Positions 3,292-55,377 of a stretch of 64,000 nt of DNA are shown here, one piece after another. The DNA lies in assembly GCA_019326865.1 (NCBI GenBank), contig GCA_019326865.1_4101.1; one strand, 5' to 3'. Made by a program: the position numbers and the translations under genes. Position 1 is the first letter of the stretch, and every line of letters starts with the position of its first letter. The stretch comes from a phage. The notes beneath the pieces were generated by a model. The model saw nothing but the letters and a program-made list of their open reading frames with translations. It was not told the DNA's origin and did no database searches.

Positions 3292-3599
3292 TGACTAAAA
3301 ATGAATTTGATTCACTTTGTACTGTTTATAATTCATTAACAGAAATACCTAACTTTATTAGTTATATTTCAGCTTTAAATCACATTATGCATAGTTTTGA
3401 ACAATCGTTTGAGGAGAAATATGCTGGAAGAAAAGTTCTATGTCATATGCCAATGTACTTAGGAGATGGTGAGCCTTACACTACAAGTACTACATGTGAA
3501 ATAAAAAAATATAATATATTATTGGGTACTATAGAATTCACAGTATCCAATGGCGGTAGTTATATGTACTTTAGAGATGGAGTGGTTGAATTATTATGA
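3291..3599 (+). CDS. hypothetical protein
   Basis: 102 aa ORF, stop-start overlap with neighbours, no recognised motif. Confidence 0.45.
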   Translation: MTKNEFDSLCTVYNSLTEIPNFISYISALNHIMHSFEQSFEEKYAGRKVLCHMPMYLGDGEPYTTSTTCEIKKYNILLGTIEFTVSNGGSYMYFRDGVVELL

Positions 3600-4045
3600 G
3601 TTACGAAAGTGCAATCAAGAAAGCAAATGATATTCTACGCGTCGTTCAATTCTTCAAAGAAAATCCTGAATACGTAGATGATAAAAACCAAGAGCACGAT
3701 GAGAGATTGAGACGAAAAATTATCTCTTTATTTGACACTAATAAAGATAATTGGAGTCTAATTGAGTTAGCATACGATTATATTTCATTGAACCGAAATG
3801 ATGATGTAGTTAAGATAGAAAGGCATGAATCAGAAGAATCTTTTAAAATTTCAGATATTTTATCCCTGAGTACTGAAGAAGGGTACTTCCAGGGTAGCAC
3901 TCTTTATAATGAAGAAACACTTGACAATCTATGCACATTCAGTGTAATATATCAGAAATCTGTACTAGATATATTTTATCTTGACACTGCTGAACTGCAT
4001 ACCCTAACCAATTTTGTTACTACCGAAGAGGCTACATTCGAGTGA
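3596..4045 (+). CDS. hypothetical protein, FamA
   Basis: 149 aa; 'MSYESAIKKAN', 'EEGYFQGSTLYNEETLD'. Confidence 0.65.
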   Translation: MSYESAIKKANDILRVVQFFKENPEYVDDKNQEHDERLRRKIISLFDTNKDNWSLIELAYDYISLNRNDDVVKIERHESEESFKISDILSLSTEEGYFQGSTLYNEETLDNLCTFSVIYQKSVLDIFYLDTAELHTLTNFVTTEEATFE

Positions 4046-4578
4046 TGAAAGTTAACATTAATGACTTTGATGCATTACAAGATTTATCAAAAAAGATTCG
4101 CACCATCGTACCAGTACTTAAAAAATGCAGTACTGGTTTAATCGATCCTAGTTCTGTTGTCAATGAGAAGTACAATTTTCATCGTGTATTACAGGGGACA
4201 GGTGCATTTCAGAAGTGTGAGGTACGTGAGAAACATGTAATTGATACATCGTTGTTTTCTATTGGTGCACCTGTGTCAAACAATACTATTTTCCTGGATG
4301 CATCTGGAAATATTCAACAATTAACATTTAAGAAAAGGAAAAAGAATAATAACATTGGTGTGTACGCGATGAAGTGGGGACAGCCAGCGTTGATGCGTGA
4401 CATTCACATTCCTAAGTACAATTTCAATGCATTTGAAGAACAGTGTTTTCAACTTTCTTGTACTGACCCTGACTATGCTATCATTCAATTCTATATGGAA
4501 TTGCAGATTGCATTTAATAGTAATTTGTATATTAACTTATTGGCAATGAACATAGATGAAGTATTCAAAAACATTTAA
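4045..4578 (+). CDS. hypothetical protein, FamA-like
   Basis: ATG 4045 (track start 4042 is GTG); 'EEQCFQLSCTDPDY'. Confidence 0.55.
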   Translation: MKVNINDFDALQDLSKKIRTIVPVLKKCSTGLIDPSSVVNEKYNFHRVLQGTGAFQKCEVREKHVIDTSLFSIGAPVSNNTIFLDASGNIQQLTFKKRKKNNNIGVYAMKWGQPALMRDIHIPKYNFNAFEEQCFQLSCTDPDYAIIQFYMELQIAFNSNLYINLLAMNIDEVFKNI

Positions 4579-4774
4579 TCGAATTGAATACATGAGAACT
4601 GTGAGAGCGGTGTGGAATATATGGTACACTACTAAACCAAAAATGGATTACCATGATTTTAAGCTCTTGTTCTTTGTTGGCTCTAACAAACAGGATGTTG
4701 CAATGAAGGGTTATATTCAGCACTTACAGGAACTAATCCAGAAGAGAATATATGAAAATAATAGACCAAAATGA
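4556..4774 (+). CDS. hypothetical small protein
   Basis: 72 aa ORF, weak RBS, start uncertain (alt ATG 4592). Confidence 0.35.
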   Translation: MKYSKTFNRIEYMRTVRAVWNIWYTTKPKMDYHDFKLLFFVGSNKQDVAMKGYIQHLQELIQKRIYENNRPK

Positions 4775-4943
4775 CATTGCTAAACTATTCAATATATATT
4801 CTACTAGAATGATGCAAACAGATTCATATAGTACTAAATTCAAAGAGTTGAAAGTACTGATGTACTTGGGAACACAATATCAGGAACAAGTTATTTTAGA
4901 ATATATTAATTCATTAAAGAAGGATATCCGTGATGTACGATGA
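4752..4943 (+). CDS. hypothetical small protein
   Basis: 63 aa ORF in co-directional gene train. Confidence 0.35.
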   Translation: MKIIDQNDIAKLFNIYSTRMMQTDSYSTKFKELKVLMYLGTQYQEQVILEYINSLKKDIRDVR

Positions 4944-5493
4944 TTTAGATCTTGCGTTTGAACGCATGAAAATTTTAATGCAATGCAATGAAATGCATGA
5001 GACAATCCGTCGCACCAAAGGGATTGAATATACAAGTAAACTATTCTCATACGAAAGTCGTCGAGGGATGGATCATTTTTACTGCACTGATTGTTCAAAG
5101 TTTTCAGTACTGAAATATTATCATCCTACTGTTTCCAATAATAGTTTAATATCCACATATGACGGTGATCTGTTTAGTGTAATGTATGACACATTACATC
5201 CATCAATTTCAATATATAAAGATTGCGATAGTAGTCTATCGTATATAATTGAAGATTACTTATCTCCTAATACTGAAGAGAATATATTTCAAAACAGTGT
5301 ATTGCATGATGAATTAAGTATAAAATGCATCTATATGTTCAATAAGTTAAAAGAATACGTTGATAATAATTACTTAATTGATGAGTTAGCTGTGTTTTCG
5401 GTTTCAGTTTTCAATACAAATGATGTTGATATGAAATACTATAATGAAATTTGTAAAGTACATAACATGTATAAGGAACTCTTATGCTACTAA
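4930..5493 (+). CDS. hypothetical protein, FamA-like
   Basis: 187 aa; 'TEENIFQNSVLHDE'. Confidence 0.55.
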   Translation: MMYDDLDLAFERMKILMQCNEMHETIRRTKGIEYTSKLFSYESRRGMDHFYCTDCSKFSVLKYYHPTVSNNSLISTYDGDLFSVMYDTLHPSISIYKDCDSSLSYIIEDYLSPNTEENIFQNSVLHDELSIKCIYMFNKLKEYVDNNYLIDELAVFSVSVFNTNDVDMKYYNEICKVHNMYKELLCY

Positions 5494-6086
5494 ATGCCAA
5501 TAAATGTTGTAGTGCAGATGTGCATTTGTTTTTTAAGAAATTGGCAAATGATATTATATATATGCAGGAAATGATTTACCACAAACGAACAGATTTAGAA
5601 AAAGCATTAGTACAGTTCTCCTTTATGCTTGATGGTGATATATTTCTACATGGTGATACATTGCGAACAGTACTGGACGGAAATTCAAATAGAAGTTTCA
5701 TTTGTACAAATAATAAATTTTCTTCCACGATGTGCCGTACTTTTTATAATCCTGATTCGGACTTATATCAAGTGTCGTATTCTAAAGGTGCAGTTGAATC
5801 ATCATATTGTGATAGTTCAGCTTTAGGTAAAAGTCGTCCATATATGCAATCATTTGAAATTGAACTCATCAGTACTGATGAAGATGCAATGTTCACAAAT
5901 GATATAACGATGGATCGTGAATCTGCAATGATATATATTACAAATTCTATGCATACATTCTTTCAACGATTAGAATTTGATAATGTATATATATCAAATG
6001 TAAATATTTTCAATGATCTGTGTCAGTACTTGAAAAGTGTTTGTGATTTTGATGAAAGCTATTGTAAGCTTTATACTGAGGTATAA
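5484..6086 (+). CDS. hypothetical protein
   Basis: 200 aa ORF, weak FamA resemblance. Confidence 0.5.
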   Translation: MLLNANKCCSADVHLFFKKLANDIIYMQEMIYHKRTDLEKALVQFSFMLDGDIFLHGDTLRTVLDGNSNRSFICTNNKFSSTMCRTFYNPDSDLYQVSYSKGAVESSYCDSSALGKSRPYMQSFEIELISTDEDAMFTNDITMDRESAMIYITNSMHTFFQRLEFDNVYISNVNIFNDLCQYLKSVCDFDESYCKLYTEV

Positions 6087-7148: not shown

Positions 7149-7685
7149 ATGTTAGATGAAAAAATGAACGCTGGAACTCAATATAATCATCTTAAGTTGG
7201 ATACATTTGAATCAGCTATCAGTACTGCACAAGATATTATCGATATTATTAAGTACATTAAAGAAAATAAGTTAAAATGTGTGAAAACACCCGAACGTAC
7301 AATGTATAAAGATGACTGTATTCACGTATCTGTTGTTAATCCAAAAGATAAGGATGGTAATAGAGATTTCTATAATAACAGTGAGCAGTTCGAATGTGAA
7401 TATGATCCAGAATTCAGAGGCGGTTTCATGTGTTACAGTATGAAGGATACCTCACACATTGAGATACGTTCATCTAAAGGTGGCATACGTACATTAGAGT
7501 TCATTGATATAGTTTTAAATCAGGAATACTACTTTCAACTATCATTATTGTTTCCTGCATACGATTTAGGAGTTCTATTCATGTATAAGTACTTTTATGA
7601 GCACTTGAATGAAGACTTCTATCTGGACTTAGAAGATTACCAATTAGTTTGGGAAGAAATGGTAGAACTTCGCAACCACCCTTGA
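7149..7685 (+). CDS. hypothetical protein, FamA
   Basis: ATG 7149 after GAGG; 'NQEYYFQLSLLF...FYLDLEDY'. Confidence 0.6.
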   Translation: MLDEKMNAGTQYNHLKLDTFESAISTAQDIIDIIKYIKENKLKCVKTPERTMYKDDCIHVSVVNPKDKDGNRDFYNNSEQFECEYDPEFRGGFMCYSMKDTSHIEIRSSKGGIRTLEFIDIVLNQEYYFQLSLLFPAYDLGVLFMYKYFYEHLNEDFYLDLEDYQLVWEEMVELRNHP

Positions 7686-7711
7686 CACCCACCGATTCTT
7701 TGTGATATAAT
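7682..7711 (+). promoter_or_regulatory. sigma70-like promoter (TTGACA-18-TGATATAAT)
   Basis: -35 TTGACA 7682-7687; extended -10 TGATATAAT 7703-7711; 33 nt upstream of CDS 7745. Confidence 0.6.
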
Positions 7712-9040: not shown

Positions 9041-9437
9041 AATTATGCAACGCTGTCTTATTGACAAATACGGGATATATGGATATCGTTTAAGTGCTCC
9101 TATTGACAAAAATAAAACAACCTATGTAAGTTATAATGCTGTACAAGGGTTTGATATATTCATTAGTACTAATTATCAAATCAAACAAGCTAAAGATGTG
9201 TCTATAATGACCCCTGATGAGTTATTTCAGTACAGCTTAGTTCTTCCTACATGTATCGATTTACAACGTCTAGGAGCGATACAGAAGGTTTTACGCGAAC
9301 ATAAAGTACAACCCAATAAAGTCACGCACATTCCAGAAACAATCTTCAAAACTATAGAAGTAGAAACCCCTGATTATATGTTAAGTGATGATGAATTCTA
9401 CGAGAAGCACTTCCCTGGTAAAGTTTGGAGAGACTAA
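9024..9437 (+). CDS. hypothetical protein, FamA
   Basis: 137 aa; GAGG RBS; 'TPDELFQYSLVLP'. Confidence 0.55.
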   Translation: MLEMIKIMQRCLIDKYGIYGYRLSAPIDKNKTTYVSYNAVQGFDIFISTNYQIKQAKDVSIMTPDELFQYSLVLPTCIDLQRLGAIQKVLREHKVQPNKVTHIPETIFKTIEVETPDYMLSDDEFYEKHFPGKVWRD

Positions 9438-9919
9438 TGAACCGAAAGTACAGAGAAACTATGAAGTTCGCTAAGGAGTGTTTAGAGACATTTGATTTCA
9501 TTTTCGATAACAAAGACTCACTTGGTCATTACTTCGTAATTACAAAAAAAGAAGATGAGAGATACAAGTGTCAAAGATTAGGATACAGTATTGAGTTATC
9601 CTTAATGAGTGATGGTATGATAAACTCCATATATGAATCTGGTAAGACAGATTACATTTCATTTAGATCATGGAGTGATAATATAATGTTCTTGAGTCCT
9701 AATGGAAGTAAATATCCATTCATTAATGATTTATCAGAAGAAAGTTACTTTCAAAACAGTTTAATTTATACAGAAAAAGAACTCAAAATGTTATTCATAA
9801 TGTCGTACTTTAAAAAGTACTGTAAATTTAAATCATTATCTTTTGAGATTTCTGCGATGAAAGTATTCATTAAAAATGTAAAAGAATTAAAGAGGGCTTT
9901 TAATGTACATAGAAAATGA
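9437..9919 (+). CDS. hypothetical protein, FamA
   Basis: ATG 9437 (TAATG overlap); 'SEESYFQNSLIYTEKELKMLFIMSYFK'. Confidence 0.65.
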   Translation: MNRKYRETMKFAKECLETFDFIFDNKDSLGHYFVITKKEDERYKCQRLGYSIELSLMSDGMINSIYESGKTDYISFRSWSDNIMFLSPNGSKYPFINDLSEESYFQNSLIYTEKELKMLFIMSYFKKYCKFKSLSFEISAMKVFIKNVKELKRAFNVHRK

Positions 9920-24207: not shown

Positions 24208-24737
24208 AAGAAACATGTATATTATCATTTATGAGATGTAACCCAGTCCACAATGGACATGGTTTAGTTTTTGAAAAGGCCAAAACATTACAAGAACAGT
24301 ACAATGCTGATTTAAAAATTTATCTAAGCACTAGTACTGACAATATAAAAAACCCACTACCACCTGAACTAAAAATGTATTATACAGAGGGATTCTATCC
24401 TTCAGTGCAAGAGAACATCTACACAGAGGACAATCTATTTGATATAATGAGAGAACTGGATGGAAAGTACTTAGATGTTCTCTTCATATGTGGTTCTGAC
24501 CGTATTGATTCTTTTCAGAAAACCCTTGACACTTACAATGGGAAGTTGTATAATTTTTGTAATATAAAAGTAATTCAAGCAGGTATTGACCGCCAATCAA
24601 GTCGATATAGCTCAACACAAATGCGTAAGTTTGCCAAAAATGAAGATTTTGATAGTTTTCGTGAGTTTTTGCCTGGAAATGACGAGAACTTAAAAATTCA
24701 ATTATTTGAAGATGTTATAAAATACATGAGGAAATAA
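24204..24737 (+). CDS. HIGH-motif nucleotidyltransferase (NMNAT/PPAT-like)
   Basis: 'SFMRCNPVHNGH' (HxGH) and 'SSTQMR' (ISSTxxR-like) motifs; ATGA overlap with MTase. Confidence 0.65.
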   Translation: MKETCILSFMRCNPVHNGHGLVFEKAKTLQEQYNADLKIYLSTSTDNIKNPLPPELKMYYTEGFYPSVQENIYTEDNLFDIMRELDGKYLDVLFICGSDRIDSFQKTLDTYNGKLYNFCNIKVIQAGIDRQSSRYSSTQMRKFAKNEDFDSFREFLPGNDENLKIQLFEDVIKYMRK

Positions 24738-33737: not shown

Positions 33738-34670
33738 ATGCCAACTATCACCTTAACAATTGGGTTGCCTGGGTGTGGTAAAACTACATGGGCAGTGCAA
33801 GAGATTAAAAACGCCAAATCTAAGACTATCAACATCAACCGTGATGATATTCGTGAATCTATGGCGGGGTCACATGATGCTTACAAATTCAACGATGCTA
33901 ATGAGCAGTACGTAACTACTTTACAGTTCAGTGCAGCAAATTTAGCAGCAGAGAATGGTTGGAACATCATCATATCCGATACGAACCTTAAACAACATTT
34001 CCGTGATCTCTGGAAAGTATGGGCTAAAGATAATGATTATGATTACAAAGAAAAGAACTTCTATGATGATTTTGTACCTAATGAAGACCGTGGTGCAGAT
34101 GTTCATGAATTCTTTAAGATTAAAGAGTTCGTAAAACTTTGTAAGAAATATAACCGCCAGCGTGAGCGTTCAGTACAAGATAATATCATTGACACTATGG
34201 CAGATACTTACTATTATAGTAAAGCAATGCACATTGGTTACTATGGTAATTCAAGAGAAGCCGCTGTTATCGTTGATATTGACGGAACTCTTGCTCATAA
34301 ATGGGGTCGTAATCCTTACGATGAAAGTACTGTACTACAAGATACACCAGATGAAGAAGTTATTTTGTCTATTATCGCTGAAGCAGTTTTCCATAAACGT
34401 AAGATTATTGTAATGAGTGGGCGTACTGAAGGGTGTCGTGCAGACACAGAACAGTGGCTTAAGAATTGGGGTGTTCCTTACGATGCATTGTTTATGCGAG
34501 GCATCGATGATAAACGACCCGATGATGTGGTAAAATATGAGTTGTATATGAATAACGTCGTGCATCATTACGATGTTAAAAAAGTATACGATGACAGATC
34601 ACAAGTCGTATTCATGTGGCGTAAACTACTTGGATTAAAAGTGATGCAAGTTGCAGAAGGAAATTTCTGA
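33738..34670 (+). CDS. pseT: polynucleotide 5'-kinase/3'-phosphatase (T4 Pnk/PseT-like)
   Basis: 310 aa; Walker A 'GLPGCGKTT'; HAD motif 'VIVDIDGTLA'; terminator downstream. Confidence 0.9.
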   Translation: MPTITLTIGLPGCGKTTWAVQEIKNAKSKTININRDDIRESMAGSHDAYKFNDANEQYVTTLQFSAANLAAENGWNIIISDTNLKQHFRDLWKVWAKDNDYDYKEKNFYDDFVPNEDRGADVHEFFKIKEFVKLCKKYNRQRERSVQDNIIDTMADTYYYSKAMHIGYYGNSREAAVIVDIDGTLAHKWGRNPYDESTVLQDTPDEEVILSIIAEAVFHKRKIIVMSGRTEGCRADTEQWLKNWGVPYDALFMRGIDDKRPDDVVKYELYMNNVVHHYDVKKVYDDRSQVVFMWRKLLGLKVMQVAEGNF

Positions 34671-34677
34671 CACAAAA

Positions 34678-34705
34678 GGGATCAATGTATGATCCCTTTT
34701 TCTTT
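34678..34705 (+). terminator. rho-independent terminator
   Basis: GGGATC-AATGTAT-GATCCC then TTTTTCTTTT; follows pseT. Confidence 0.7.
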
Positions 34706-34719
34706 TAAGGTATATTATA

Positions 34720-34895
34720 ATGAATGTAAAAACACAGATGTTATTACAAAAAGAATACTTAGAAAATATAGAAATGTTCTATAGATTGTCTTTATACGAA
34801 AATAAACATAAAAAATATAACTTTTCTAAACAACTAACCACAAGTACTAATGATTATCTATTTTCATCAATGTTTTATGTGAGAGGTTTATTATA
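34720..34895 (+). CDS. possible small protein (58 aa)
   Basis: ORF below track cutoff; TAATG junction with next gene; weak RBS. Confidence 0.25.
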
Positions 34896-35153
34896 ATGGA
34901 TAAATTTCACACAGATATAACACAGATAGGTAATCTTATCAATAGTCTAATTACTGATTTAGAAGAAAAGTACTTAGGTCGAAATGTATACGTTGAAATG
35001 TATGAAACATATGGTGTTATTGATATGATTTATTACAGTGCATTGAAGTGTGAAATACGTTTAACAGTATGTTTGTTTGAAAAAGATACATTCAACAGAA
35101 GTACTGCAATTCGTCAGGTTGGTGTAGATGACATTGAATTATATGAGGAATAA
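34896..35153 (+). CDS. hypothetical small protein, FamC
   Basis: 85 aa; 'EEKYLGRNVYVEMYE'. Confidence 0.5.
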   Translation: MDKFHTDITQIGNLINSLITDLEEKYLGRNVYVEMYETYGVIDMIYYSALKCEIRLTVCLFEKDTFNRSTAIRQVGVDDIELYEE

Positions 35154-44083: not shown

Positions 44084-44779
44084 ATGGTTGAACAATTCAA
44101 TTTTGGTGGTTATGCTAATGGTGAAGTAAGTAACATTTCTATTCCGTATGTAGTTGAAAAAGTTAATGGTTCAGAGCGTACATATGATCTAGCATCTCGT
44201 ATGATGCAAGACCGTATCATTTTCCTTGATACTGATTTCAATGACCAGATGGCACATATCATCAAACAACAATTGGTGTGGTTAGACTCACAAGGTGATT
44301 CCCCTATTACATTCTATATTAGTTCACCAGGTGGTTCAGTACATGCAGGTTTGGGCATCGCTGATATTGCTAAATCTTGTGTATCACCAATCCGTACTGT
44401 AGTAATGGGTTATGCAGCATCAATGGGGTGTTATACACAATCTGTTATTGGGACTAAAGGTTTCCGTTTGGGTGGTAAACGTTCCTACTTCATGTGTCAC
44501 CAAGTAAGTTCTGGTACGAAAGGTCTAATTACTGACCAGAAAATTTCACTTAAACATTCTGATGAACTGAACACGTTGCTGACGAAAGAAATCGCTGAAG
44601 CTGTTGGCGTTTCTCATGAACAACTACTGAAAGATGCAGACCGTGATTTGTGGTTGAATGCTGAAGAAGCACTCGAATATGGTGAAAAAGGATTTATCGA
44701 TGGTATTATCCTTGGACCACGCAACGAGAAAGGTCAATACCTAGTCAAGCGTCGTGGTGGTGTTGAAGAGTGGGTTTGA
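44084..44779 (+). CDS. clpP: ClpP-family serine protease
   Basis: 'SSPGGSVHAGLGI', Ser in 'GYAASMGC', His in 'MCHQVSSG'; strong promoter at 44021-44049. Confidence 0.85.
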   Translation: MVEQFNFGGYANGEVSNISIPYVVEKVNGSERTYDLASRMMQDRIIFLDTDFNDQMAHIIKQQLVWLDSQGDSPITFYISSPGGSVHAGLGIADIAKSCVSPIRTVVMGYAASMGCYTQSVIGTKGFRLGGKRSYFMCHQVSSGTKGLITDQKISLKHSDELNTLLTKEIAEAVGVSHEQLLKDADRDLWLNAEEALEYGEKGFIDGIILGPRNEKGQYLVKRRGGVEEWV

Positions 44780-47151: not shown

Positions 47152-49824
47152 TTACGCACTGATTGTTACAGTTGCAGTATCTTTTTTATTACCATCCACA
47201 GTAGTCACTGTAATGATTACAGAACCTTCTTCTAGAGCAGTTACTAATCCATCATCACTAATAGATACTTTAGTAGGTTCATCTGCACTATAAGTTACTG
47301 ATTTGTTAGTTGCTTTAGCTGGAAGAACTTCAGGAACTAGTTGAACTGTTTTAGTTCCTGATAGTGAAAGTTCAGTAGTTTTAGGTGTTAAACTAACACT
47401 GGATACTGGAACTGGAATATTAACGATTACTGATGTTTGACCAGTAACATCACTACCATCAGCGGCAGTAGCGATAATATTTGCAGTACCATTAGTTAGT
47501 GCAGTTACGATACCAGTATTAGCATCTACTTTAGCAATTTCTGGAGCACTGGATGACCAAATTACTTTTTTATTGGTTGCATTACTTGGGGTAATTGCAG
47601 CAGTCATCTGTTTAGTTGCATTCAATGTAGTCAAAGTTTGATCTTTAGGAGTTACATCAATTGCAGTTACTGGCACTGGAATATTAACAGTAATAACACC
47701 TTGACCTGTTTTACCACTTCCATCAGCAGCAGTTGCGATAATGTTTGCAGAACCGTTAGTTAACGCAGTTACAACACCAGTACTAGCATCTACTTTCGCT
47801 ACAGCAGGTTTACTGGAAGACCATGTTACAGATTTATTTGTTGCGTTAGTTGGAAGAACTTCAGCAGCCATTGCTTGAGTTGCGTTAACAGCAGTCAATG
47901 TTTTAGTTGCTGGAGTAACATTAATAGATGCGACTGGAACTGGAATTGCTACAGTTACCGCACATTTTGCAGTTTTTGCTCCATCAGCAGTTGTTACTGT
48001 GATATCAGCAGTGCCATTTGCTACAGCAGTGATTAAACCAGTTGGACTAACAGTTGCCACTCCATCAGCAGAAGTACTATAAGTTACTGCTTTGTTGGTA
48101 GCATTAGGTGGTAGTACAGTTGGTGTTAGTTGTTGAGTATCACCGACTGAAGTTAATTTAGCACTTGTTGGAGATACTGATACACTTGCAACAGGAACTG
48201 GAATATTAACATTTACCACGCAAACTTTAGTAAATCCACCATCAGATGTGGTTGCTGTAATATTTGCAGTACCGTTTGCAACAGCAGTGATTAAACCAGT
48301 TGGACTTACCGTTGCGACACCCTCAGCAGAAGTAGTGTATGAAATATCTTTACGACGAGCGTTATCTGGAATAACAGATGCAGTTAGTTGTTGAGTAGCA
48401 CCTACAGAAGTTAGGGTTGCTGTCAACGGAGTCATATTAATACCAGTTACTGGGATCGTTACATCAATCACTGATTCAGCAGTTTTAGCACCATCATCAG
48501 TGGTAACAGTAATAGTTGTAGTACCGTTATCAACCGAAGTTACTAGACCAGTATTACTAACTTTTGCCACGTCTGGATATGAAGAAACATATGAAACTGC
48601 TTTATTGGATGCAGTTGTAGGAGCAACGGTTGTTTCTAATTGTTTAGTATCACCTAATGTTGAGAATGTATAAGTACTAGGAGTCATAGTGACACCAGAT
48701 ACAGGTGTTTTCACAGTGATAGTAGTAGTATCAGTTTTAGCACCATCTTCGGTTGTTGCTGTAATCACCACTGTACCGTTAGCAACACCAGTTACTAGAC
48801 CAGAAGTAGGGTTAACAGTTGCTATATCAGGTGTTGCTGAAGACCACGTGACGTTTTTATTAGTTGCATCATCAGGAGATATTGTAGCAGTTAATTGTTG
48901 AGTACCGCCAACGTTAATTGTTGCAGTTTTAGGAGAAACAACAACACCACTAACTGGAGTTGTTACAGTAACAGTACATTTTGAAACAAATATGCCATCA
49001 ACAGTAGTTGCAATTACATCAGTACTACCATCTGCAACACCAGTTACCATACCAGTTGGACTTACAGTTGCGACGCGTGGTATACTAGATAACCAATTAA
49101 CACGTTTATCACTTGCATCATCGGGTGATACGGTAGCTGTTAGTTGTTGAGTTTTACCAACACTAAGAGATAGAGTTGAAGGAGAAACAACAACACCACT
49201 AACTGGAGTTGTTACGGTAAATGCACAAACATCCGTGAAACCACCATCATGAGTAGTAACTGTTACATTTGCGTTACCATTAGCACGGGCAATTGCTAAA
49301 CCAGTTTGAGCATCAACTTCAACTATTGTTGGAGCAGAGGAACTATAACTTACTGTTTTATCATTTGCATAATCTGGATCAATTGTAGCTGATAGCTGTT
49401 GTGTACTACCAACTTTAAGTGCTACTACTTTAGGTGAAATAATTACACCATCAACTGGAGTAGTATAATCACGTTTAACCACACGACCATTGTTCAATTT
49501 AATAATACGACCCATATAAAGAGTAGTATATCCTTTACTAATCCCATCATCTACATAAATCATGAATGAATTGTCTTGAACCATATTAATTGCGTCTACT
49601 GGTTTAACGGAATTTGGAATGTCGATACCACGGGTATCATACCAACACATGGAAACTTTGTAATAGATATCACCATTATCATTTATGAGATCATAAACGT
49701 TACTGGAACGTTGACGGTTAATATATAAAGTTTCGGTTAACACCTTACCATCGATTTTAGCGACAGAAACTTTAATACCACCAATACCAAATGGCAATTT
49801 ACCTTCACTAGATATTGCTTTCAT
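47152..49824 (-). CDS. virion surface/decoration protein with nine Big_2 Ig-like repeats (Hoc-like or fibre-associated candidate)
   Basis: 890 aa; nine copies of 'NATNK.V.WSSS.P..A.V...G.VTA...G.A.I.AT..DG' pattern; only minus-strand gene; TATAAATA upstream. Confidence 0.8.
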   Translation of the reverse strand: MKAISSEGKLPFGIGGIKVSVAKIDGKVLTETLYINRQRSSNVYDLINDNGDIYYKVSMCWYDTRGIDIPNSVKPVDAINMVQDNSFMIYVDDGISKGYTTLYMGRIIKLNNGRVVKRDYTTPVDGVIISPKVVALKVGSTQQLSATIDPDYANDKTVSYSSSAPTIVEVDAQTGLAIARANGNANVTVTTHDGGFTDVCAFTVTTPVSGVVVSPSTLSLSVGKTQQLTATVSPDDASDKRVNWLSSIPRVATVSPTGMVTGVADGSTDVIATTVDGIFVSKCTVTVTTPVSGVVVSPKTATINVGGTQQLTATISPDDATNKNVTWSSATPDIATVNPTSGLVTGVANGTVVITATTEDGAKTDTTTITVKTPVSGVTMTPSTYTFSTLGDTKQLETTVAPTTASNKAVSYVSSYPDVAKVSNTGLVTSVDNGTTTITVTTDDGAKTAESVIDVTIPVTGINMTPLTATLTSVGATQQLTASVIPDNARRKDISYTTSAEGVATVSPTGLITAVANGTANITATTSDGGFTKVCVVNVNIPVPVASVSVSPTSAKLTSVGDTQQLTPTVLPPNATNKAVTYSTSADGVATVSPTGLITAVANGTADITVTTADGAKTAKCAVTVAIPVPVASINVTPATKTLTAVNATQAMAAEVLPTNATNKSVTWSSSKPAVAKVDASTGVVTALTNGSANIIATAADGSGKTGQGVITVNIPVPVTAIDVTPKDQTLTTLNATKQMTAAITPSNATNKKVIWSSSAPEIAKVDANTGIVTALTNGTANIIATAADGSDVTGQTSVIVNIPVPVSSVSLTPKTTELSLSGTKTVQLVPEVLPAKATNKSVTYSADEPTKVSISDDGLVTALEEGSVIITVTTVDGNKKDTATVTISA
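47155..49452 (-). repeat. intragenic tandem repeats encoding nine Big_2 Ig-like domains
   Basis: about 255 nt coding unit repeated nine times within CDS 47152-49824. Confidence 0.7.
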
Positions 49825-49868: not shown

Positions 49869-50136
49869 TTATAACAAAATTATTTTAGTATTAAAAAGGA
49901 GTTCTAATGTTCCTTTATATTTTAAAGGAACATACTGTGTAAATCTGGTTTGGTCAGGTAAATCTTTCGGAGAGAAGGAAGTAGTGAATGACATTTTATC
50001 ATTAAAATCATCTCCTTACCTTTAAAATAGAATTGTAAACTGCCTCCTAATATGATACCATAGTTCAAATGGTAAATCAATGAACTTAACAAAAAAAACA
50101 CTTGATACTACAGTCATAATTGTTCAGTTTTTGTGC

Positions 50137-50165
50137 TTGACATAATTAATCAATTATTGTACTAT
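50137..50165 (+). promoter_or_regulatory. candidate promoter (TTGACA-17-TACTAT)
   Basis: in 376 bp divergent intergenic region upstream of CDS 50201. Confidence 0.35.
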
Positions 50166-50200
50166 TAATAATGTTCCTTAACTCAAATCCGAGGTAATTA

Positions 50201-50806
50201 ATGAAACGATTATTGAAAGAGATTATACAAACCGTTGTTATAATTGCTGCATTAAACTTTCCAGCGGCGGCAGAAGTTTCAAAAAAAGCATCTGTTTTTC
50301 TATTAAATGATCATGTTGGGTCAATTGATGGTGAACTAAATGATAAAACTGTACAAGATGTGGAGCAGTTGTGGAAAGAAAAAAAATTTAAAATTTTAAC
50401 AATTACATCACCTGGGGGTGATTTTGATGCTGGTATTAAAATGGGAAATTTTGTTAGAGACAATGGTATAAATTTAATTGTTTCTAGATATTGCAATTCA
50501 GCATGTACTGTGGTATTCTTTAGTGTGTCCCCTGAAAAACGATATATGACAAATCAATCAGTACTGGGATTACATAACATTTCAATCAAAAGTAACGTTA
50601 GAGATAGGGATAATACTTTTGTATCTGTTAGACAATTATCAACATTTACTGAAGAAATGGCAACAAAAGTAGGATTTTTATTTACACTATATTCAGCTAA
50701 TGGAATTCCACCTAGCGTTCTATATAGAGTTAGTCGTGCACGTGGTGAAGATGTTGTTATCTTAACAAAAAAAGACCTAATTCATTACGGTTCGGTAAAT
50801 CCATAA
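50201..50806 (+). CDS. secreted ClpP-fold (S14/S49-like) serine peptidase-like protein
   Basis: N-terminal signal-like 'VVIIAALNFPAAA'; 'ITSPGGDFDAGIKMGNFV' resembles ClpP SPGG core. Confidence 0.55.
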   Translation: MKRLLKEIIQTVVIIAALNFPAAAEVSKKASVFLLNDHVGSIDGELNDKTVQDVEQLWKEKKFKILTITSPGGDFDAGIKMGNFVRDNGINLIVSRYCNSACTVVFFSVSPEKRYMTNQSVLGLHNISIKSNVRDRDNTFVSVRQLSTFTEEMATKVGFLFTLYSANGIPPSVLYRVSRARGEDVVILTKKDLIHYGSVNP

Positions 50807-50874
50807 AAATAATTATAATAACAGGATGATTATGTTGTTCTTCCTTTGTTATTAACTATATCGGAAATATAACT

Positions 50875-51135
50875 ATGACAAACATCCAGAATTTGACGTC
50901 TATTATTTTTTATGCTACAGTGGTGATGTATGCTATTGTACTTATTTTAACAGTTTTTATTTACAAAGATTACAAAAAAGGCTTTATTAATAGTACAACA
51001 ATGAAGTTCAATTCTAAATTTGAAGCAATTATATTTTATGTTTTGACAACATCATATTTGTTGTGTATAATGTTACTAGGGTCATTGATTTATATTTTAT
51101 ATACAACATTATTTGCAATTGGAGCTATTTTATGA
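50875..51135 (+). CDS. small membrane protein
   Basis: 86 aa, multiple hydrophobic helices. Confidence 0.5.
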   Translation: MTNIQNLTSIIFYATVVMYAIVLILTVFIYKDYKKGFINSTTMKFNSKFEAIIFYVLTTSYLLCIMLLGSLIYILYTTLFAIGAIL

Positions 51136-51728
51136 CATGTATTATTGCACACACTGATGGTGTAACTTCATTTATTGCAGGGGACAAGATGGGGAGTGAT
51201 GGTTTTACGAAATCAATCCAAACAGAGCCTAAAGTGTTTGAGAAAGAATTTGTAAAGATTAGTGGTGATGACGGCTTGACTCGTACAAAAGATGTTATGA
51301 CAATTGGATTCACTACATCATTTCGTATGGGTCAACTGCTAACTTATAATTTAAATTTACCAGACCAAAATTCAAATGAGACGTTTCTACAGTATTTAGT
51401 ACTGAAAGTTATTCCTCTTATTCGTCAAATGTTTAAAGACGAATGGGGTGCACGTGATACAACACAAGATGTTGGTGGTGGTCAATTTATTATTTTACAC
51501 AATCATACGATTTATGAAATTCAGGAAGATTTTTCGGTTCTCCAGTCAAAATCAAGAGTTGCATCTGTTGGTAGTGGTACATATCATGCAATTGCAGCTA
51601 TGCAAGCATATATTGATCTTGAGAAAGAAACTAACGTACAACTACATGAACGTATCAAATCCATTTTCAAAATTGTTAGTGATAATGTATCGAGTGTAAG
51701 CGAAGAGTTTGATGTATTAAAATATTAA
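51132..51728 (+). CDS. HslV/proteasome beta-like Ntn-hydrolase peptidase
   Basis: ATGA start; 'MTCIIAHTDGVTSFIAGDKMGSDG' vs HslV 'TTIVSV...VIAGDGQATLG'; 'VGSGTYHAIAAMQAY' vs HslV GSGG motif. Confidence 0.55.
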   Translation: MTCIIAHTDGVTSFIAGDKMGSDGFTKSIQTEPKVFEKEFVKISGDDGLTRTKDVMTIGFTTSFRMGQLLTYNLNLPDQNSNETFLQYLVLKVIPLIRQMFKDEWGARDTTQDVGGGQFIILHNHTIYEIQEDFSVLQSKSRVASVGSGTYHAIAAMQAYIDLEKETNVQLHERIKSIFKIVSDNVSSVSEEFDVLKY

Positions 51729-51743
51729 AATTATAAGAGAGAA

Positions 51744-51938
51744 ATGATGGCATACACAATTTATGAATGGATTTTGAGTTTTATTATAGTATTTTTTATG
51801 GTTGTAATTTACAATAATGCTAAATGCTTATATAGAGATTTAAAATCCAATGGTTATCATGCAAACAATAATTTAATGTATGCCTATCATATTGGAATCA
51901 TTCTATTATTATCAATATATTTAATTGGTTTTATTTAA
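51744..51938 (+). CDS. small membrane protein
   Basis: 64 aa, two hydrophobic helices. Confidence 0.45.
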   Translation: MMAYTIYEWILSFIIVFFMVVIYNNAKCLYRDLKSNGYHANNNLMYAYHIGIILLLSIYLIGFI

Positions 51939-51947
51939 GGATTGCGT

Positions 51948-52700
51948 ATGATATCAGAAAAATTTATAAGTAATGAGGGAAACAAGAGATTACTTATTAT
52001 CTCAGGAGCAGGTCTTTCCGTTGAAAGTGGGATGGAGCCATTTCGATTTGATGATGGCTTATGGGATACATTTAAAATTAATGACGTATGTAATATTGCA
52101 AATTTAGATACAAAATATCATGTTGTTCATTCGTTTTATAACACACTGCGTGTTAAACTGGGTCAATGTGAACCAAATGCAATGCATTATTTTATAAAAT
52201 CCTTAGAGGACCAATATGGTGATTGTTTTCTTCATATGACCTCCAATATGGATGATCTTTATACACGTATTGGTGGCAAAGAACTAAAACTTCATGGTAA
52301 TTTATGTGAAGTGATAGAAAATTATAGTATTAATGGTGATGATTATAACATTGTTAACTGTGGTTATGAGCCATATATACCAAAACATGATGTTTTTGCT
52401 AAACCAAATGTAGTGATGATTGGTGAATATCACCGTTATGTTGATGGTGTTCGTTTGCCAATATATGAAGAAAGAAATAATGTTTTAAAAACACTTAATG
52501 AAAACGATACTGTGATTGTTATTGGAAGTAGTGATACAGTACTTGTGTGGTCCAGATTAGCTGCGGCATTACCCTGTTATAGCGTTAATGTTAACATTCG
52601 TAAAAATGATAATGATTTTCTGTTCAATGAAAAAATTATTCAACCAGCTACCAAAGCAATACCACAATTAGAGACTATAATTAAGGAACGTATGAAATGA
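51948..52700 (+). CDS. Sir2-family (sirtuin-like) NAD-dependent enzyme
   Basis: 'ISGAGLSVESGMEPFR', 'TSNMDDL', catalytic 'LHGNL', 'PNVVMIGEY'; ATG after AAGG. Confidence 0.75.
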   Translation: MISEKFISNEGNKRLLIISGAGLSVESGMEPFRFDDGLWDTFKINDVCNIANLDTKYHVVHSFYNTLRVKLGQCEPNAMHYFIKSLEDQYGDCFLHMTSNMDDLYTRIGGKELKLHGNLCEVIENYSINGDDYNIVNCGYEPYIPKHDVFAKPNVVMIGEYHRYVDGVRLPIYEERNNVLKTLNENDTVIVIGSSDTVLVWSRLAAALPCYSVNVNIRKNDNDFLFNEKIIQPATKAIPQLETIIKERMK

Positions 52701-53248
52701 GTGTTAAAGAAGTTCCCTTTGGTGAATATGGTTCACGTGCCAATTTTGTATTTTGCTATTTCTTTGCAAGAAAATGTAACCCTTACGAAAATTACGAATT
52801 GAATGATATACCAGAAGTAAATTTAGTATTACTTCAATTACGTTGGGATGGCCTTCTAGGGGGATGTGGTGGGACAGTTGAAAGTACTGATATCTCACTA
52901 GAAGATGCGTTACGTCGTGAAATTCAAGAAGAGATGGATTACAATATTTTTGTTTCCCATCTTCGACCACTTAAAACTTTTGAAATTTACCCAGGTGCAA
53001 ACAGTCATAGTTTTAGCTATGAAGTAACCTATGATGAGTTGAAACACATTAGAGATGGATACACTAATGCTAAACATGCGAGTGCTGAAGTGGCTGGTGT
53101 AAATTTATGTCATATTTCTCGTTATTCTAAGGGACAAAATCGAGAAGCGGGATATAATAATCTTATGACTCAGAACTTCATTGGTACAGCAAAACAAGAA
53201 TTGGAGTATCTGGTTCAAAAAGAAAACTTACTAATTAGTTATCTATAG
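52697..53248 (+). CDS. Nudix hydrolase-like protein
   Basis: Nudix-box-like 'GGCGGTVESTDISLEDALRREIQEEMDY'; ATGA overlap with Sir2. Confidence 0.6.
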   Translation: MSVKEVPFGEYGSRANFVFCYFFARKCNPYENYELNDIPEVNLVLLQLRWDGLLGGCGGTVESTDISLEDALRREIQEEMDYNIFVSHLRPLKTFEIYPGANSHSFSYEVTYDELKHIRDGYTNAKHASAEVAGVNLCHISRYSKGQNREAGYNNLMTQNFIGTAKQELEYLVQKENLLISYL

Positions 53249-53257
53249 GAGTTTAAC

Positions 53258-53578
53258 ATGTCTTACTCAATGTTTTTGGATGATATCCGTGATGCAAATC
53301 TATATTATCCAAACCAAGATATGGTGGTATGTCGTGACTTTAAAAGTGCATGTGAATATGTTATTGAAAATGGAATTCCAGCATTTGTATCATTCGACCA
53401 TGACTTGGGTGATGTGAGCGAAGACGAAAAGACTGGATATTCTTTTGCTAAGTTTCTTATTGATTATATGTTTGATAATAATATTAAAGAACCGTTTGAG
53501 TACTTTGTTCACAGTAGTAATCCTGTTGGTAAAATTAATATTGAAACATACTTAAACAATGGGTTTAACGCATTATGA
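53258..53578 (+). CDS. hypothetical protein (possible receiver-like domain)
   Basis: 106 aa; acidic 'FLDDIRD' and 'SFDHDLGD' pattern; assignment tentative. Confidence 0.45.
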   Translation: MSYSMFLDDIRDANLYYPNQDMVVCRDFKSACEYVIENGIPAFVSFDHDLGDVSEDEKTGYSFAKFLIDYMFDNNIKEPFEYFVHSSNPVGKINIETYLNNGFNAL

Positions 53579-53937: not shown

Positions 53938-55377
53938 ATGAAAAAATATACAATTGACACAAACGTACTACTATCTGATCCAAATGCGTCTGTTGCTTTT
54001 GATGGTGCTGCAATCATTCTACCATTTACAGTACTGGAAGAATTGGATTCGATTAAGAGTCGCAATGTTGATGTTTCACGTGATGCTCGTGTTGCGATTC
54101 GTAACATTGAAGCAATTATTGCAGAGGCATCACATAATGAGATTAGTTGTACTGGTGTTAATATTGCTGATGTTCATACCAATATGAATCCTGATAGCAA
54201 ATTGTTTGTTATTACAACCGAAGAAGCTGAGGCACTAATTCGTACTAAAGGTTCAGACGAGAAAGTTCAAACCCTTCTTAAAAGTACTGTACCTGATGAT
54301 AAAATTATTCTGGTTGCTTTAGCAACCGAATCAGTACTGGTAACTCGTGATATCAACATGCGTATCAAAGCACTAAGTTATGGTGTCGAGGTACAAGACT
54401 ATCGTCATGATATTGTTATTGGTGATAGTGATTTGATGCACATTGGTCAACATCATTTGGAACTCAATTTTTGGGATGTATATAGCAATTTAGCAAATAC
54501 AAATATTAAAACTGAACAAATTGGTCGTCGATTGTATCATTACATTCCTAAAAGCTTGATTGGTCATTTACTTCCACAAAATCTATGCATTGGTGATTAT
54601 CTATATGATGATGCTGATGTATTATTTGTATATGAAGGCCAATCAGCCATTGAGGAAGATGATGGCACACTAACACCAGAAGATATTTTGGTATTCCAAG
54701 ACATTGGTCAATCTGTAGCTTTGCGTGCTAAAGTATGGGATATTAAAGCAAAGAATATTCAACAAGCACTTGCAATCAACAGTATTCTCGATCCTGATGT
54801 ACACCTAACAGTGCTGCTAGGTTCTGCTGGAACTGGCAAAACATTAATTACGATTGCTACTGCACTAGAGTTAGTACTGGAAAAACGCAAATACGACCGT
54901 ATTATCTTCTCTAAAACACAAGATTCACAGTTTGAAGATATAGGATTCTTGCCAGGTTCTGAGACAGAGAAAGTTATCCCATTCTGTGGACCTGCAATTG
55001 ATGCTCTTGAGTATCTTCATAAAGATGATGTATCACCACAAGGTAGCATCGAAGAGATTCTCAAACGTAACGTGATGCAATTTAAAGCATTGAACTTTAT
55101 TCGTGGTCGTTCTTTTGCCAATACAATTCTAATTGTGGATGAAGCACAGAACTTAACACCAGCCCAGTTAAAAACTGTCTTGACAAGAGCCGGAGAAAAC
55201 TGTAAAGTAATCATACTTGGTAACCTAGCACAGATTGATAACAAGTTTATCAGTCCAGTAAACAGTGGTTTGACATATGTAACTGAAAAATTCAAGGATT
55301 GGAGTGGTTGTCGTATCATTGAATTAGAAGGTGTTGTTCGTTCACCACTTGCTGAATTTGCTGAAGAAAATATGTAA
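53938..55377 (+). CDS. phoH: PhoH-like ATPase with N-terminal PIN domain
   Basis: PIN 'YTIDTNVLLSDP'; Walker A 'GSAGTGKT'; Walker B 'LIVDEAQN'. Confidence 0.85.
   Translation: MKKYTIDTNVLLSDPNASVAFDGAAIILPFTVLEELDSIKSRNVDVSRDARVAIRNIEAIIAEASHNEISCTGVNIADVHTNMNPDSKLFVITTEEAEALIRTKGSDEKVQTLLKSTVPDDKIILVALATESVLVTRDINMRIKALSYGVEVQDYRHDIVIGDSDLMHIGQHHLELNFWDVYSNLANTNIKTEQIGRRLYHYIPKSLIGHLLPQNLCIGDYLYDDADVLFVYEGQSAIEEDDGTLTPEDILVFQDIGQSVALRAKVWDIKAKNIQQALAINSILDPDVHLTVLLGSAGTGKTLITIATALELVLEKRKYDRIIFSKTQDSQFEDIGFLPGSETEKVIPFCGPAIDALEYLHKDDVSPQGSIEEILKRNVMQFKALNFIRGRSFANTILIVDEAQNLTPAQLKTVLTRAGENCKVIILGNLAQIDNKFISPVNSGLTYVTEKFKDWSGCRIIELEGVVRSPLAEFAEENM

Follow-up and report, generated by a model that had tools for sequence, protein, structure and literature searches.

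Group I proteasome homologues, which comprise PPH, AAH and CPH, occur in bacteria and phages, have no linked AAA+ partner and sit in gene contexts that were found to be uninformative (Fuchs, Alva and Lupas, 2021, PMC8665760). In the jumbo phage 121Q (NC_025447.1), gp473 is noted as 'protease (ClpP-like)' and gp475 as 'protease (ClpYQ-like)' in both GenBank and RefSeq. Here we analysed a 64,000-nucleotide stretch of phage DNA (assembly GCA_019326865.1, contig GCA_019326865.1_4101.1; hereafter the window), which is part of the genome of an Asteriusvirus jumbo myophage of Escherichia coli, and in it a block of four open reading frames (ORFs) between positions 50201 and 51938, here named A, B, C and D. 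A is the counterpart of gp473 and C that of gp475, and B and D encode small membrane proteins. We estimate at roughly 60% the probability that A and C are two independent, probably active peptidases, which act in different compartments and have become neighbours through a lineage-specific change in gene order. The original prediction took the cluster as unusual and as suggestive of a phage-directed, possibly envelope-targeted proteolysis system. Its gene identities are correct but already public, since both peptidase labels stand in the 121Q record and PHROGs holds both families, and the HslV-like family lies within the published class of phage-borne proteasome homologues. The 121Q proteins gp473 and gp475 are direct orthologues of A and C without biological difference; their labels and those of phrog_26024 and phrog_1040 are based on sequence similarity only, and these entries record no export signal, catalytic-residue analysis or function. 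The literature that we searched holds no experimental work on these phage proteins.

The four ORFs lie on the + strand at the positions first proposed. The region 49900-52000 is 98.3% identical over its full length to Escherichia phage UE-S1 and 83-86% identical to 121Q (85%), PBECO4, phAPEC6 and about 25 other Escherichia/Salmonella jumbo phages. The whole A-B-C-D block is also present in 121Q, UE-S1 and two relatives from metagenomes (L171 and L173), with amino-acid identities across these four of 46-99% for A, 59-98% for B, 77-98% for C and 47-98% for D; in 121Q, where the gene order is the same, A is 68% and C 82% identical. Furthermore, the ratios of non-synonymous to synonymous substitution rates (dN/dS) between the window and 121Q are low (B 0.19, C 0.10, D 0.16). 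The recurrence of the block and the low dN/dS show that A-B-C-D is not a chance set of ORFs, and all four are genuine and under purifying selection.

The ClpP-like core motif described for A, SPGGDFDAGIKMG, is present in the protein, although profile searches place A below the curated thresholds of the ClpP family. A matches phrog_26024 ('protease') across residues 1-200 (1.4e-84) but scores 17.5 bits against Pfam CLP_protease (PF00574; gathering score 20.2), 15-22 bits against the NCBIfam ClpP models (cut-offs 120-251) and 17.2 bits against NfeD1b_N (cut-off 40); matches to NCBIfam Clp_rel_HeadMat are weak, and Pfam gives no Peptidase_S49 match. Sequence searches of the PDB returned chance matches only for A and nothing for C, so that the fold assignments of both needed structure prediction. 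In an AlphaFold2 (AF2) model built from 19 homologues, with a mean pLDDT (the model's per-residue confidence score) of 85, a helix formed by residues 2-19 is detached from the globular domain by a disordered linker (residues 20-27). The best 50 Foldseek matches of this model in the PDB are all ClpP (E ~1e-8; template modelling (TM) score 0.6-0.73), with a root-mean-square deviation of ~3 Å across ~173 columns. The 19-sequence alignment was uninformative when compared with E. coli ClpP by hhalign (probability 6%); a 162-sequence profile resolved the alignment (probability 97.2%, E 3.6e-11) and placed S100 on ClpP S97 and H125 on ClpP H122. In the model, S100 sits at a strand-to-helix elbow and H125 directly after a strand, as in ClpP. 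Together, the structural and profile matches make the predicted ClpP fold of A a confident assignment.

The catalytic residues are also retained. In the 19 close homologues SPGG, C98-x-S100-x-C102 and G-L-H125-N are invariant, including both C98 and C102, the only cysteines in A, and these motifs recur in 140-142 of 143 more distant relatives, among which C98 is kept in 140 of 143, S100 in 141 of 143, C102 in 140 of 143 and H125 in 125 of the 127 in which it is aligned. The Ser and His that the original prediction singled out for checking are thus present and conserved, the Asp is not. A therefore resembles E. coli ClpP (MEROPS S14) in its fold (TM 0.65-0.73), in an SPGG oxyanion loop, in a nucleophile Ser at the strand-helix elbow with the His 25 residues on, and in a long 'handle' helix; it differs in being only 16-18% identical, in carrying a signal-like leader where ClpP has its axial loops, and in having the C-x-S-x-C cysteines and no conserved equivalent of Asp171. 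SppA (S49) and NfeD are, like A, ClpP-fold serine peptidases that work at or outside the cytoplasmic membrane without ATP. SppA/NfeD-type peptidases, which are larger or embedded in the membrane, rely on a Ser-Lys dyad, whereas the base position in A is a His, and A scores far under their thresholds. Ser-His dyads suffice in other ClpP-fold hydrolases.

A has a single N-terminal hydrophobic segment (residues 8-26) that ends in F-P-A-A-A|E, and thus carries the marks of export expected from a signal-peptide-like N-terminus. From its sequence and model we infer that A would be an exported, ATP-independent Ser-His hydrolase: a Sec-type signal or anchor at the N-terminus would place the ClpP-fold domain outside the cytoplasm, where, given this predicted location, A could not use an ATP-dependent unfoldase and would act through S100 and H125. 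In the periplasm C98 and C102 probably form a disulfide, which would brace the nucleophile elbow.

This picture of A as an exported protein is mirrored in its wider family. Searched by profile, 1.84 billion cluster representatives yielded 2,326 relatives at E<=1e-3, with matches that mostly cover the N-terminal two-thirds of the profile only. The distant relatives have 230-300 residues, signal peptides or lipoboxes, and the motifs T-S-P-G-G, Y-C-x-S-S-C-A-N-Y and L-G-[FW]-H-G; an N-terminal hydrophobic segment is found in 103 of 134 relatives of at most 320 residues and a lipobox-like motif in 23. These sequences thus suggest that A is a phage-borne member of an extensive bacterial family of ClpP-fold proteins destined for export, for which neither Pfam nor NCBIfam holds a curated family. 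Among phages, 49 records spread over the RaK2-like jumbo group encode an A-type protein (Asteriusvirus, RaK2, K64-1, Erwinia phage Hallingskeid, Xanthomonas phage XaC1 and a Vibrio phage); the gene is ancestral to this group. The best match in BFVD is RaK2 H6X4V4 (TM 0.82), with leader and motifs conserved; a scan of IMG/VR with A-family patterns found 121Q only, the RaK2-type homologues having come from tblastn and BFVD.

These features bear on another view of A, as a second cytoplasmic ClpP paralogue that works with a phage ClpA-like ATPase, or as a head-maturation protease in the prohead. Some homologues are labelled 'head maturation protease' or 'ATP-dependent Clp protease proteolytic subunit', the Clp_rel_HeadMat matches point the same way, and the phage does encode a ClpA-like ATPase. 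But the hydrophobic leader, which carries an AxA motif, stands apart from the folded domain; a periplasmic location is indicated by the pair of invariant cysteines and by relatives that are exported or lipoproteins; the 121Q record has no virion-protein flag on gp473; and the genus already has a T4 gp21-type prohead protease detected in virions (PMC7247149, PMC7824862). We regard a cytoplasmic or prohead A as highly improbable.

C begins with M-T-C-I-I-A-H-T-D-G, and the second motif quoted for it, GSGTYHAIAAMQAY, is present. It matches phrog_1040 ('peptidase HslV family') over residues 1-197 (1.1e-21), yields no Pfam match at E<=1, including PF00227 (Proteasome), and scores far below the NCBIfam cut-offs for HslV (TIGR03692, 17 bits vs 157.75; PRK05456, 16.9 vs 137). 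The AF2 model (pLDDT 93.7) has four helices, and Foldseek finds Anbu and, at probability 1.00 and E ~1e-9, HslV of several species, BPH and proteasome β subunits, with TM 0.6-0.73 against HslV and BPH. Furthermore, hhalign aligns C with E. coli HslV at a probability of 97%, with M-T, G-D and G-S-G in register. The model thus gives C, with confidence, an HslV/BPH/proteasome-β fold, as had been proposed for this N-terminal nucleophile (Ntn) hydrolase.

The putative active site of C is conserved to a similar degree. Of the 323 homologues that a first search retrieved, 48 with identities as low as 28% were aligned. All of these share M1, D18, K34, G59, S63, F64, Q68, G117, G147 and V189, at least 90% keep T2, C3 and I4, and there is no propeptide. 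D18 aligns with HslV D17, G59 with the oxyanion Gly (HslV Gly45; Gly47 in the proteasome) and G147-S-G149 with the HslV G-S-G-G loop. Subtracting Met1 gives a Thr1/Asp17/Lys33 numbering that is exactly that of HslV and the proteasome β subunits. The putative Thr nucleophile looked for in C is therefore present as T2, M-T being kept together with Asp18, Lys34 and Gly59. From the known specificity of methionine aminopeptidase we infer that the host enzyme would remove Met1 and expose the Thr, giving a Thr1/Asp17/Lys33/Gly45 active site in a cytoplasmic protein. C most likely forms rings and would trim or degrade host or phage proteins early in infection; since no HslU was detected in this phage genus, it would either work alone, like BPH, or borrow the HslU of the host.

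HslV is the top structural match of C, which shares with it the catalytic numbering, the Gly45-type glycine, the G-S-G loop and a compact subunit without a long propeptide. C differs from HslV in being 16-18% identical, in having its own signature (T-T-S-F-R-M-G-Q-L-L) and in lacking a linked HslU gene; the Asteriusvirus proteins carry, in addition, a β-hairpin of ~17 residues (approximately residues 38-54) that is absent from HslV and from other members of the C family. BPH structures are an equally good fit to C (TM up to 0.72), and like BPH and the group I homologues C is compact, without propeptide or C-terminal helix and without a linked AAA+ partner. PPH differs, with ~140 residues and no helix 2 against the 198 residues and four helices of C, while the reported host range of AAH resembles that of the C relatives. 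To judge from its length, four-helix architecture and host range, C most likely belongs to AAH.

The signature of C is widespread: it occurs in at least 584 IMG/VR contigs, in 387 bacterial genome contigs and in 198 cultured phage records. The bacterial carriers are mainly Azospirillum and other α-proteobacteria, Polyangiaceae and Patescibacteria, with some Firmicutes and one actinobacterial (Microthrixaceae) metagenome-assembled genome. Among the cultured phages are T5-like Epseptimaviruses, Aeromonas and Vibrio phages, XacN1, SCTP-2 and Geobacillus virus E3, in which the protein is labelled 'peptidase HslV family', 'putative nucleophile aminohydrolase' or hypothetical. In two contigs of smaller phages (L015 3218-5891 and L078 152-1746) the HslV-like gene directly follows a portal-MuF fusion or a large-terminase gene, and a role in head morphogenesis is a possibility for the HslV-like protein of phages of this type.

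The close structural match to HslV raises the question of whether a C ring could dock onto host HslU, so that ATP-dependent degradation would be redirected to substrates chosen by the phage or host HslV would be displaced. HslV proteins, that of E. coli included, are the best structural matches of C, its active site is fully conserved, and E. coli has hslVU. Neither the window nor the 121Q segments examined hold an ORF like HslU or ClpX, and only four Escherichia phage records match HslU (E<=1e-3) compared with at least 33 that carry A, which indicates a genus without a detectable HslU of its own. But C is only distantly related to HslV in sequence and structurally as close to BPH, which is independent of an unfoldase; its family is common in α-proteobacteria, myxobacteria, Patescibacteria and phages of very different hosts, and no co-occurring AAA+ partner was seen for the group I homologues (PMC8665760). 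We therefore consider recruitment of HslU by C rather unlikely, albeit the strongest of the competing explanations.

A and C could also be inactive pseudo-proteases, kept as scaffolds for binding. Consistent with this, both score under the thresholds of the curated ClpP and HslV models, and A has no conserved Asp171 equivalent. The catalytic residues are, however, present and conserved in both: S100 and H125 of A persist almost without exception in divergent relatives, D18, K34 and G59 of C are found in 48 of 48 sequences and T2 in at least 90%, and the dN/dS of 0.10 indicates strong purifying selection on C. On these sequence grounds pseudo-protease scaffolds are unlikely, and we give them very little weight.

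Several observations nevertheless count against the reading of A and C as independent, active enzymes. The region of A corresponding to ClpP Asp171 (R-G-E-D184) is variable: three of the 19 homologues have no acidic residue at the D184 site and the wider family diverges entirely there, so that A could be a weak or a different hydrolase. The signal peptide of A was judged by rule of thumb, and the invariance of E7 and Q10 within the leader, unusual in a signal that is cleaved, suggests that the leader is perhaps a retained anchor. In C, hhalign puts K34 three residues off HslV K33; given this offset, its assignment rests on its invariance, the identical numbering and its place at the start of a strand (residues 35-44). 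The papers searched hold no activity, localisation or expression data for A or C. Finally, the A-B-C-D order and the ATGA overlap of B and C are conserved throughout the genus, even where A is only 46% identical, which leaves room for a functional link specific to the genus.

That last point leads to the proposal that A-B-C-D is one envelope-directed module, in which B and/or D would anchor or regulate a C ring at the inner membrane and A would act on the far side of that membrane. The gene order is constant in all Asteriusvirus-type relatives examined, even with A at 46-48% identity, the B/C overlap is kept in four lineages, and a single conserved promoter-like site lies upstream of A. Outside the genus, however, the genes occur apart. 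RaK2 and Hallingskeid carry A in the syntenic place, behind a dCMP deaminase gene, without B, C and D; the genes that follow A there are NMNAT-Nudix and NAMPT, with Sir2 further downstream in RaK2. Lineage L172 resembles these two in having A without an adjacent C. Conversely, C (63% identity) is present in L011, a 360-kb relative, beside unrelated small membrane ORFs and with A, B and D absent nearby, and across its hundreds of viral contigs and cultured phages it is nearly always without an A-type gene: hidden Markov model scans of 160 C-carrying loci found an A-family gene in 121Q alone. The neighbours of C vary, among them a NAD-dependent ligase, an HD-domain protein, a tRNA synthetase and, in small phages, portal or terminase genes.

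Two patterns that seemed to recur at HslV-like loci were considered and rejected. In a T4-like contig (L003) the HslV-like gene directly follows a ClpP-fold gene, the one other adjacency of this kind, suggesting a conserved pair; the ClpP-fold protein of L003 has no signal peptide, carries ACSSAG and not C-x-S-x-C, and matches ClpP models of the head-maturation type. A small membrane protein upstream of the HslV-like gene was seen in Asteriusvirus, L011 and Salmonella phage S114; since small membrane ORFs precede C in 5 of 79 phage loci, no more than the 8% of background genes that they precede, the apparent recurrence was discarded.

Furthermore, the catalytic domains of A and C are predicted to lie on opposite sides of the inner membrane, A extracytoplasmic and C cytoplasmic. 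With A found without C, C without A, membrane ORFs at background frequency and the compartments different, the single, possibly envelope-targeted proteolysis system of the original prediction does not hold up well, and we judge it distinctly unlikely; within the genus, a local functional link between B and C retains a small probability. Two independent peptidases brought together by gene order thus remain our preferred explanation.

A more specific version of this explanation, which we offer tentatively and think rather unlikely to be right in all its parts, would have A secreted early by RaK2-like phages into the host periplasm to cut an envelope protein of the host, possibly a receptor, part of a periplasmic defence or a factor that controls lysis, with the A family as exported, ATP-independent Ser-His ClpP-fold hydrolases that have a disulfide-braced C-x-S-x-C elbow. 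Independently of A, C would act by itself as a viral mini-proteasome and eliminate defence or regulatory proteins of the host. If true, periplasmic cleavage by A would offer phages a new means of taking over the host or of excluding superinfection. PADLOC defence models gave no match for A, B, C or D. The remaining interest lies in the function of both families, above all the exported C-x-S-x-C ClpP-fold family, which counts its bacterial relatives in the thousands and is covered by no curated model in Pfam or NCBIfam; the C family spans hundreds of phage genomes, including easily manipulated T5-like phages. The coordinates of the features are collected in the table below.

Table. Positions in the window of the A-B-C-D block, of predicted functional residues in A and C, and of related features (residue numbers refer to the respective protein).
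Feature	Position	Strand	Description
A	50201-50806	+	201 aa, exported ClpP-fold Ser-His peptidase (predicted)
A, signal-peptide-like segment	residues 1-24		MKRLLKE + 13 hydrophobic residues + F-P-A-A-A|E
A, SPGG	residues 70-73		
A, C98	50492-50494		
A, S100	50498-50500		putative nucleophile
A, C102	50504-50506		
A, H125	50573-50575		
B	50875-51135	+	86 aa, small two-helix membrane protein
C	51132-51728	+	198 aa from the ATG giving M-T-C-I-I-A-H-T-D-G; proteasome/HslV superfamily
C, T2	51135-51137		
C, D18	51183-51185		
C, K34	51231-51233		
C, G59	51306-51308		
C, G147-S-G149	51570-51578		
D	51744-51938	+	64 aa, small two-helix membrane protein
Sigma-70-type promoter-like site	50137-50165	+	TTGACA-17-TACTAT, ~35 nt upstream of A; promoter scan
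Canonical ClpP	44084-44779	+	231 aa; context, outside the A-B-C-D cluster

B and D appear from their sequences to be genuine small two-helix membrane proteins. In each, two hydrophobic peaks flank a basic loop; the peaks lie at residues 10-28 and 62-80 in B and at residues 4-22 and 46-64 in D. B has no family match in Pfam, PHROGs, NCBIfam or PADLOC, and D has no family match either. By tblastn, D is 89% identical in 121Q, 98% in UE-S1 and 47-53% in L171 and L173. In 121Q it lies at 9351-9542 of the analysed segment (L001; approximately 219971-220162 of the record), inside a 223-bp gap without a RefSeq gene, and the GenBank record lists no feature there. Both membrane proteins had been described as ATGA-coupled to the peptidase genes. 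This applies at the B/C junction (TTTT-ATGA-CATGT), where the overlap is retained in 121Q, UE-S1, L171 and L173; A and B are instead separated by 68 nucleotides and C and D by 15. Sequence comparison suggests that translational coupling of B to C is confined to Asteriusvirus. In L011 (IMG/VR 2029527005_000005), at least six tandem same-strand ORFs for two-helix membrane proteins of 69-93 residues precede the HslV-like gene (3435-5988). No similarity of these ORFs to B or D was detected, and the array gives the impression of a small-membrane-protein family with rapid turnover.

The canonical ClpP, encoded some distance upstream of the block at 44084-44779, is a clear member of its family (Pfam CLP_protease, 3.9e-41), as had been stated. 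121Q encodes a 762-residue ClpA-like protein with a double AAA+ architecture (gp581, 298257-300545; Pfam AAA, AAA_lid_9, AAA_2 and ClpB_D2-small), of which relatives are found in 33 Escherichia phage records, and a protein with a ClpS domain (gp48, 34461-35006). The presence of gp581 and gp48 assigns the canonical ClpP to a phage-encoded ClpA/ClpS/ClpP set. It had been grouped with A and C as the third peptidase of one proteolysis system, an idea that finds no support here, as the canonical ClpP is explained by the ClpA-like ATPase and the ClpS-like adaptor of the phage. One virus can thus carry up to three types of self-compartmentalising peptidase: ClpA/ClpS/ClpP, a proteasome-like Thr peptidase and a periplasmic ClpP-like peptidase. 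RefSeq labels the canonical ClpP 'head maturation protease'. Virions of the genus contain a prohead protease of the T4 gp21 type (PMC7247149); the canonical ClpP is not the prohead protease, and the RefSeq label is probably a label-transfer error. ClpP of jumbo phages was proposed to be probably directed at the host (Iyer et al., PMC7824862).

Upstream of A, a TTGAC(A/T)-N17-TAnnAT site is found 35-45 nucleotides before the gene in 121Q, UE-S1, L171, L172 and L173, with spacer sequences that differ. In the window this site is likely to start a transcript that runs through A-B-C-D and possibly on into Sir2 and the genes beyond. A predicted promoter of the sigma-70 type at this position suggests transcription by the host RNA polymerase early in infection, and the conserved site fits the early expression that had been proposed for the block. 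A second candidate, with a perfect sigma-70 consensus at 51043-51071 inside B and ~60 nucleotides before C, was set aside: it is mutated in 121Q, L171 and L173 and confined to UE-S1-type phages, and to judge from these sequences it is recent or fortuitous. Perfect TTGACA-N16-18-TATAAT matches occur at 7682-7711, 24526-24554 and 51043-51071, all on the + (coding) strand; three compare with 0.39 expected, and 2 of 100 shuffles reach three.

Directly downstream of D lie genes for Sir2 (51942-52700), a Nudt16-like Nudix protein (52697-53248) and a cREC protein (53258-53578; cREC_REC, cyclic-phosphate-processing Rec, 1.5e-22), a trio that resembles the NAD+/ADP-ribose conflict modules of jumbo phages (Iyer et al., 2021). 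RaK2-type phages have NMNAT-Nudix and NAMPT genes (NAD salvage) in place of the trio. On the other side, divergent from the A-B-C-D cluster, 47152-49824 (- strand) encodes an 890-residue protein with about ten Ig-like repeats; syntenic ORFs in a relative match Big_2. The length of this locus differs between phages: 121Q has a 378-bp gene (gp471, 'structural protein; Ig domain') and a 132-bp ORF, UE-S1 has 1,902 bp, and L171 has three ORFs, two of which match Big_2 and one Invasin_D3. Further downstream, 53938-55377 encodes a 479-residue PhoH-like protein with an N-terminal PIN_4 nuclease domain, according to Pfam matches on the 479-residue counterparts in L171 and L173, and a PhoH gene is also found near the HslV-like gene in two unrelated contigs (L003 and L004).

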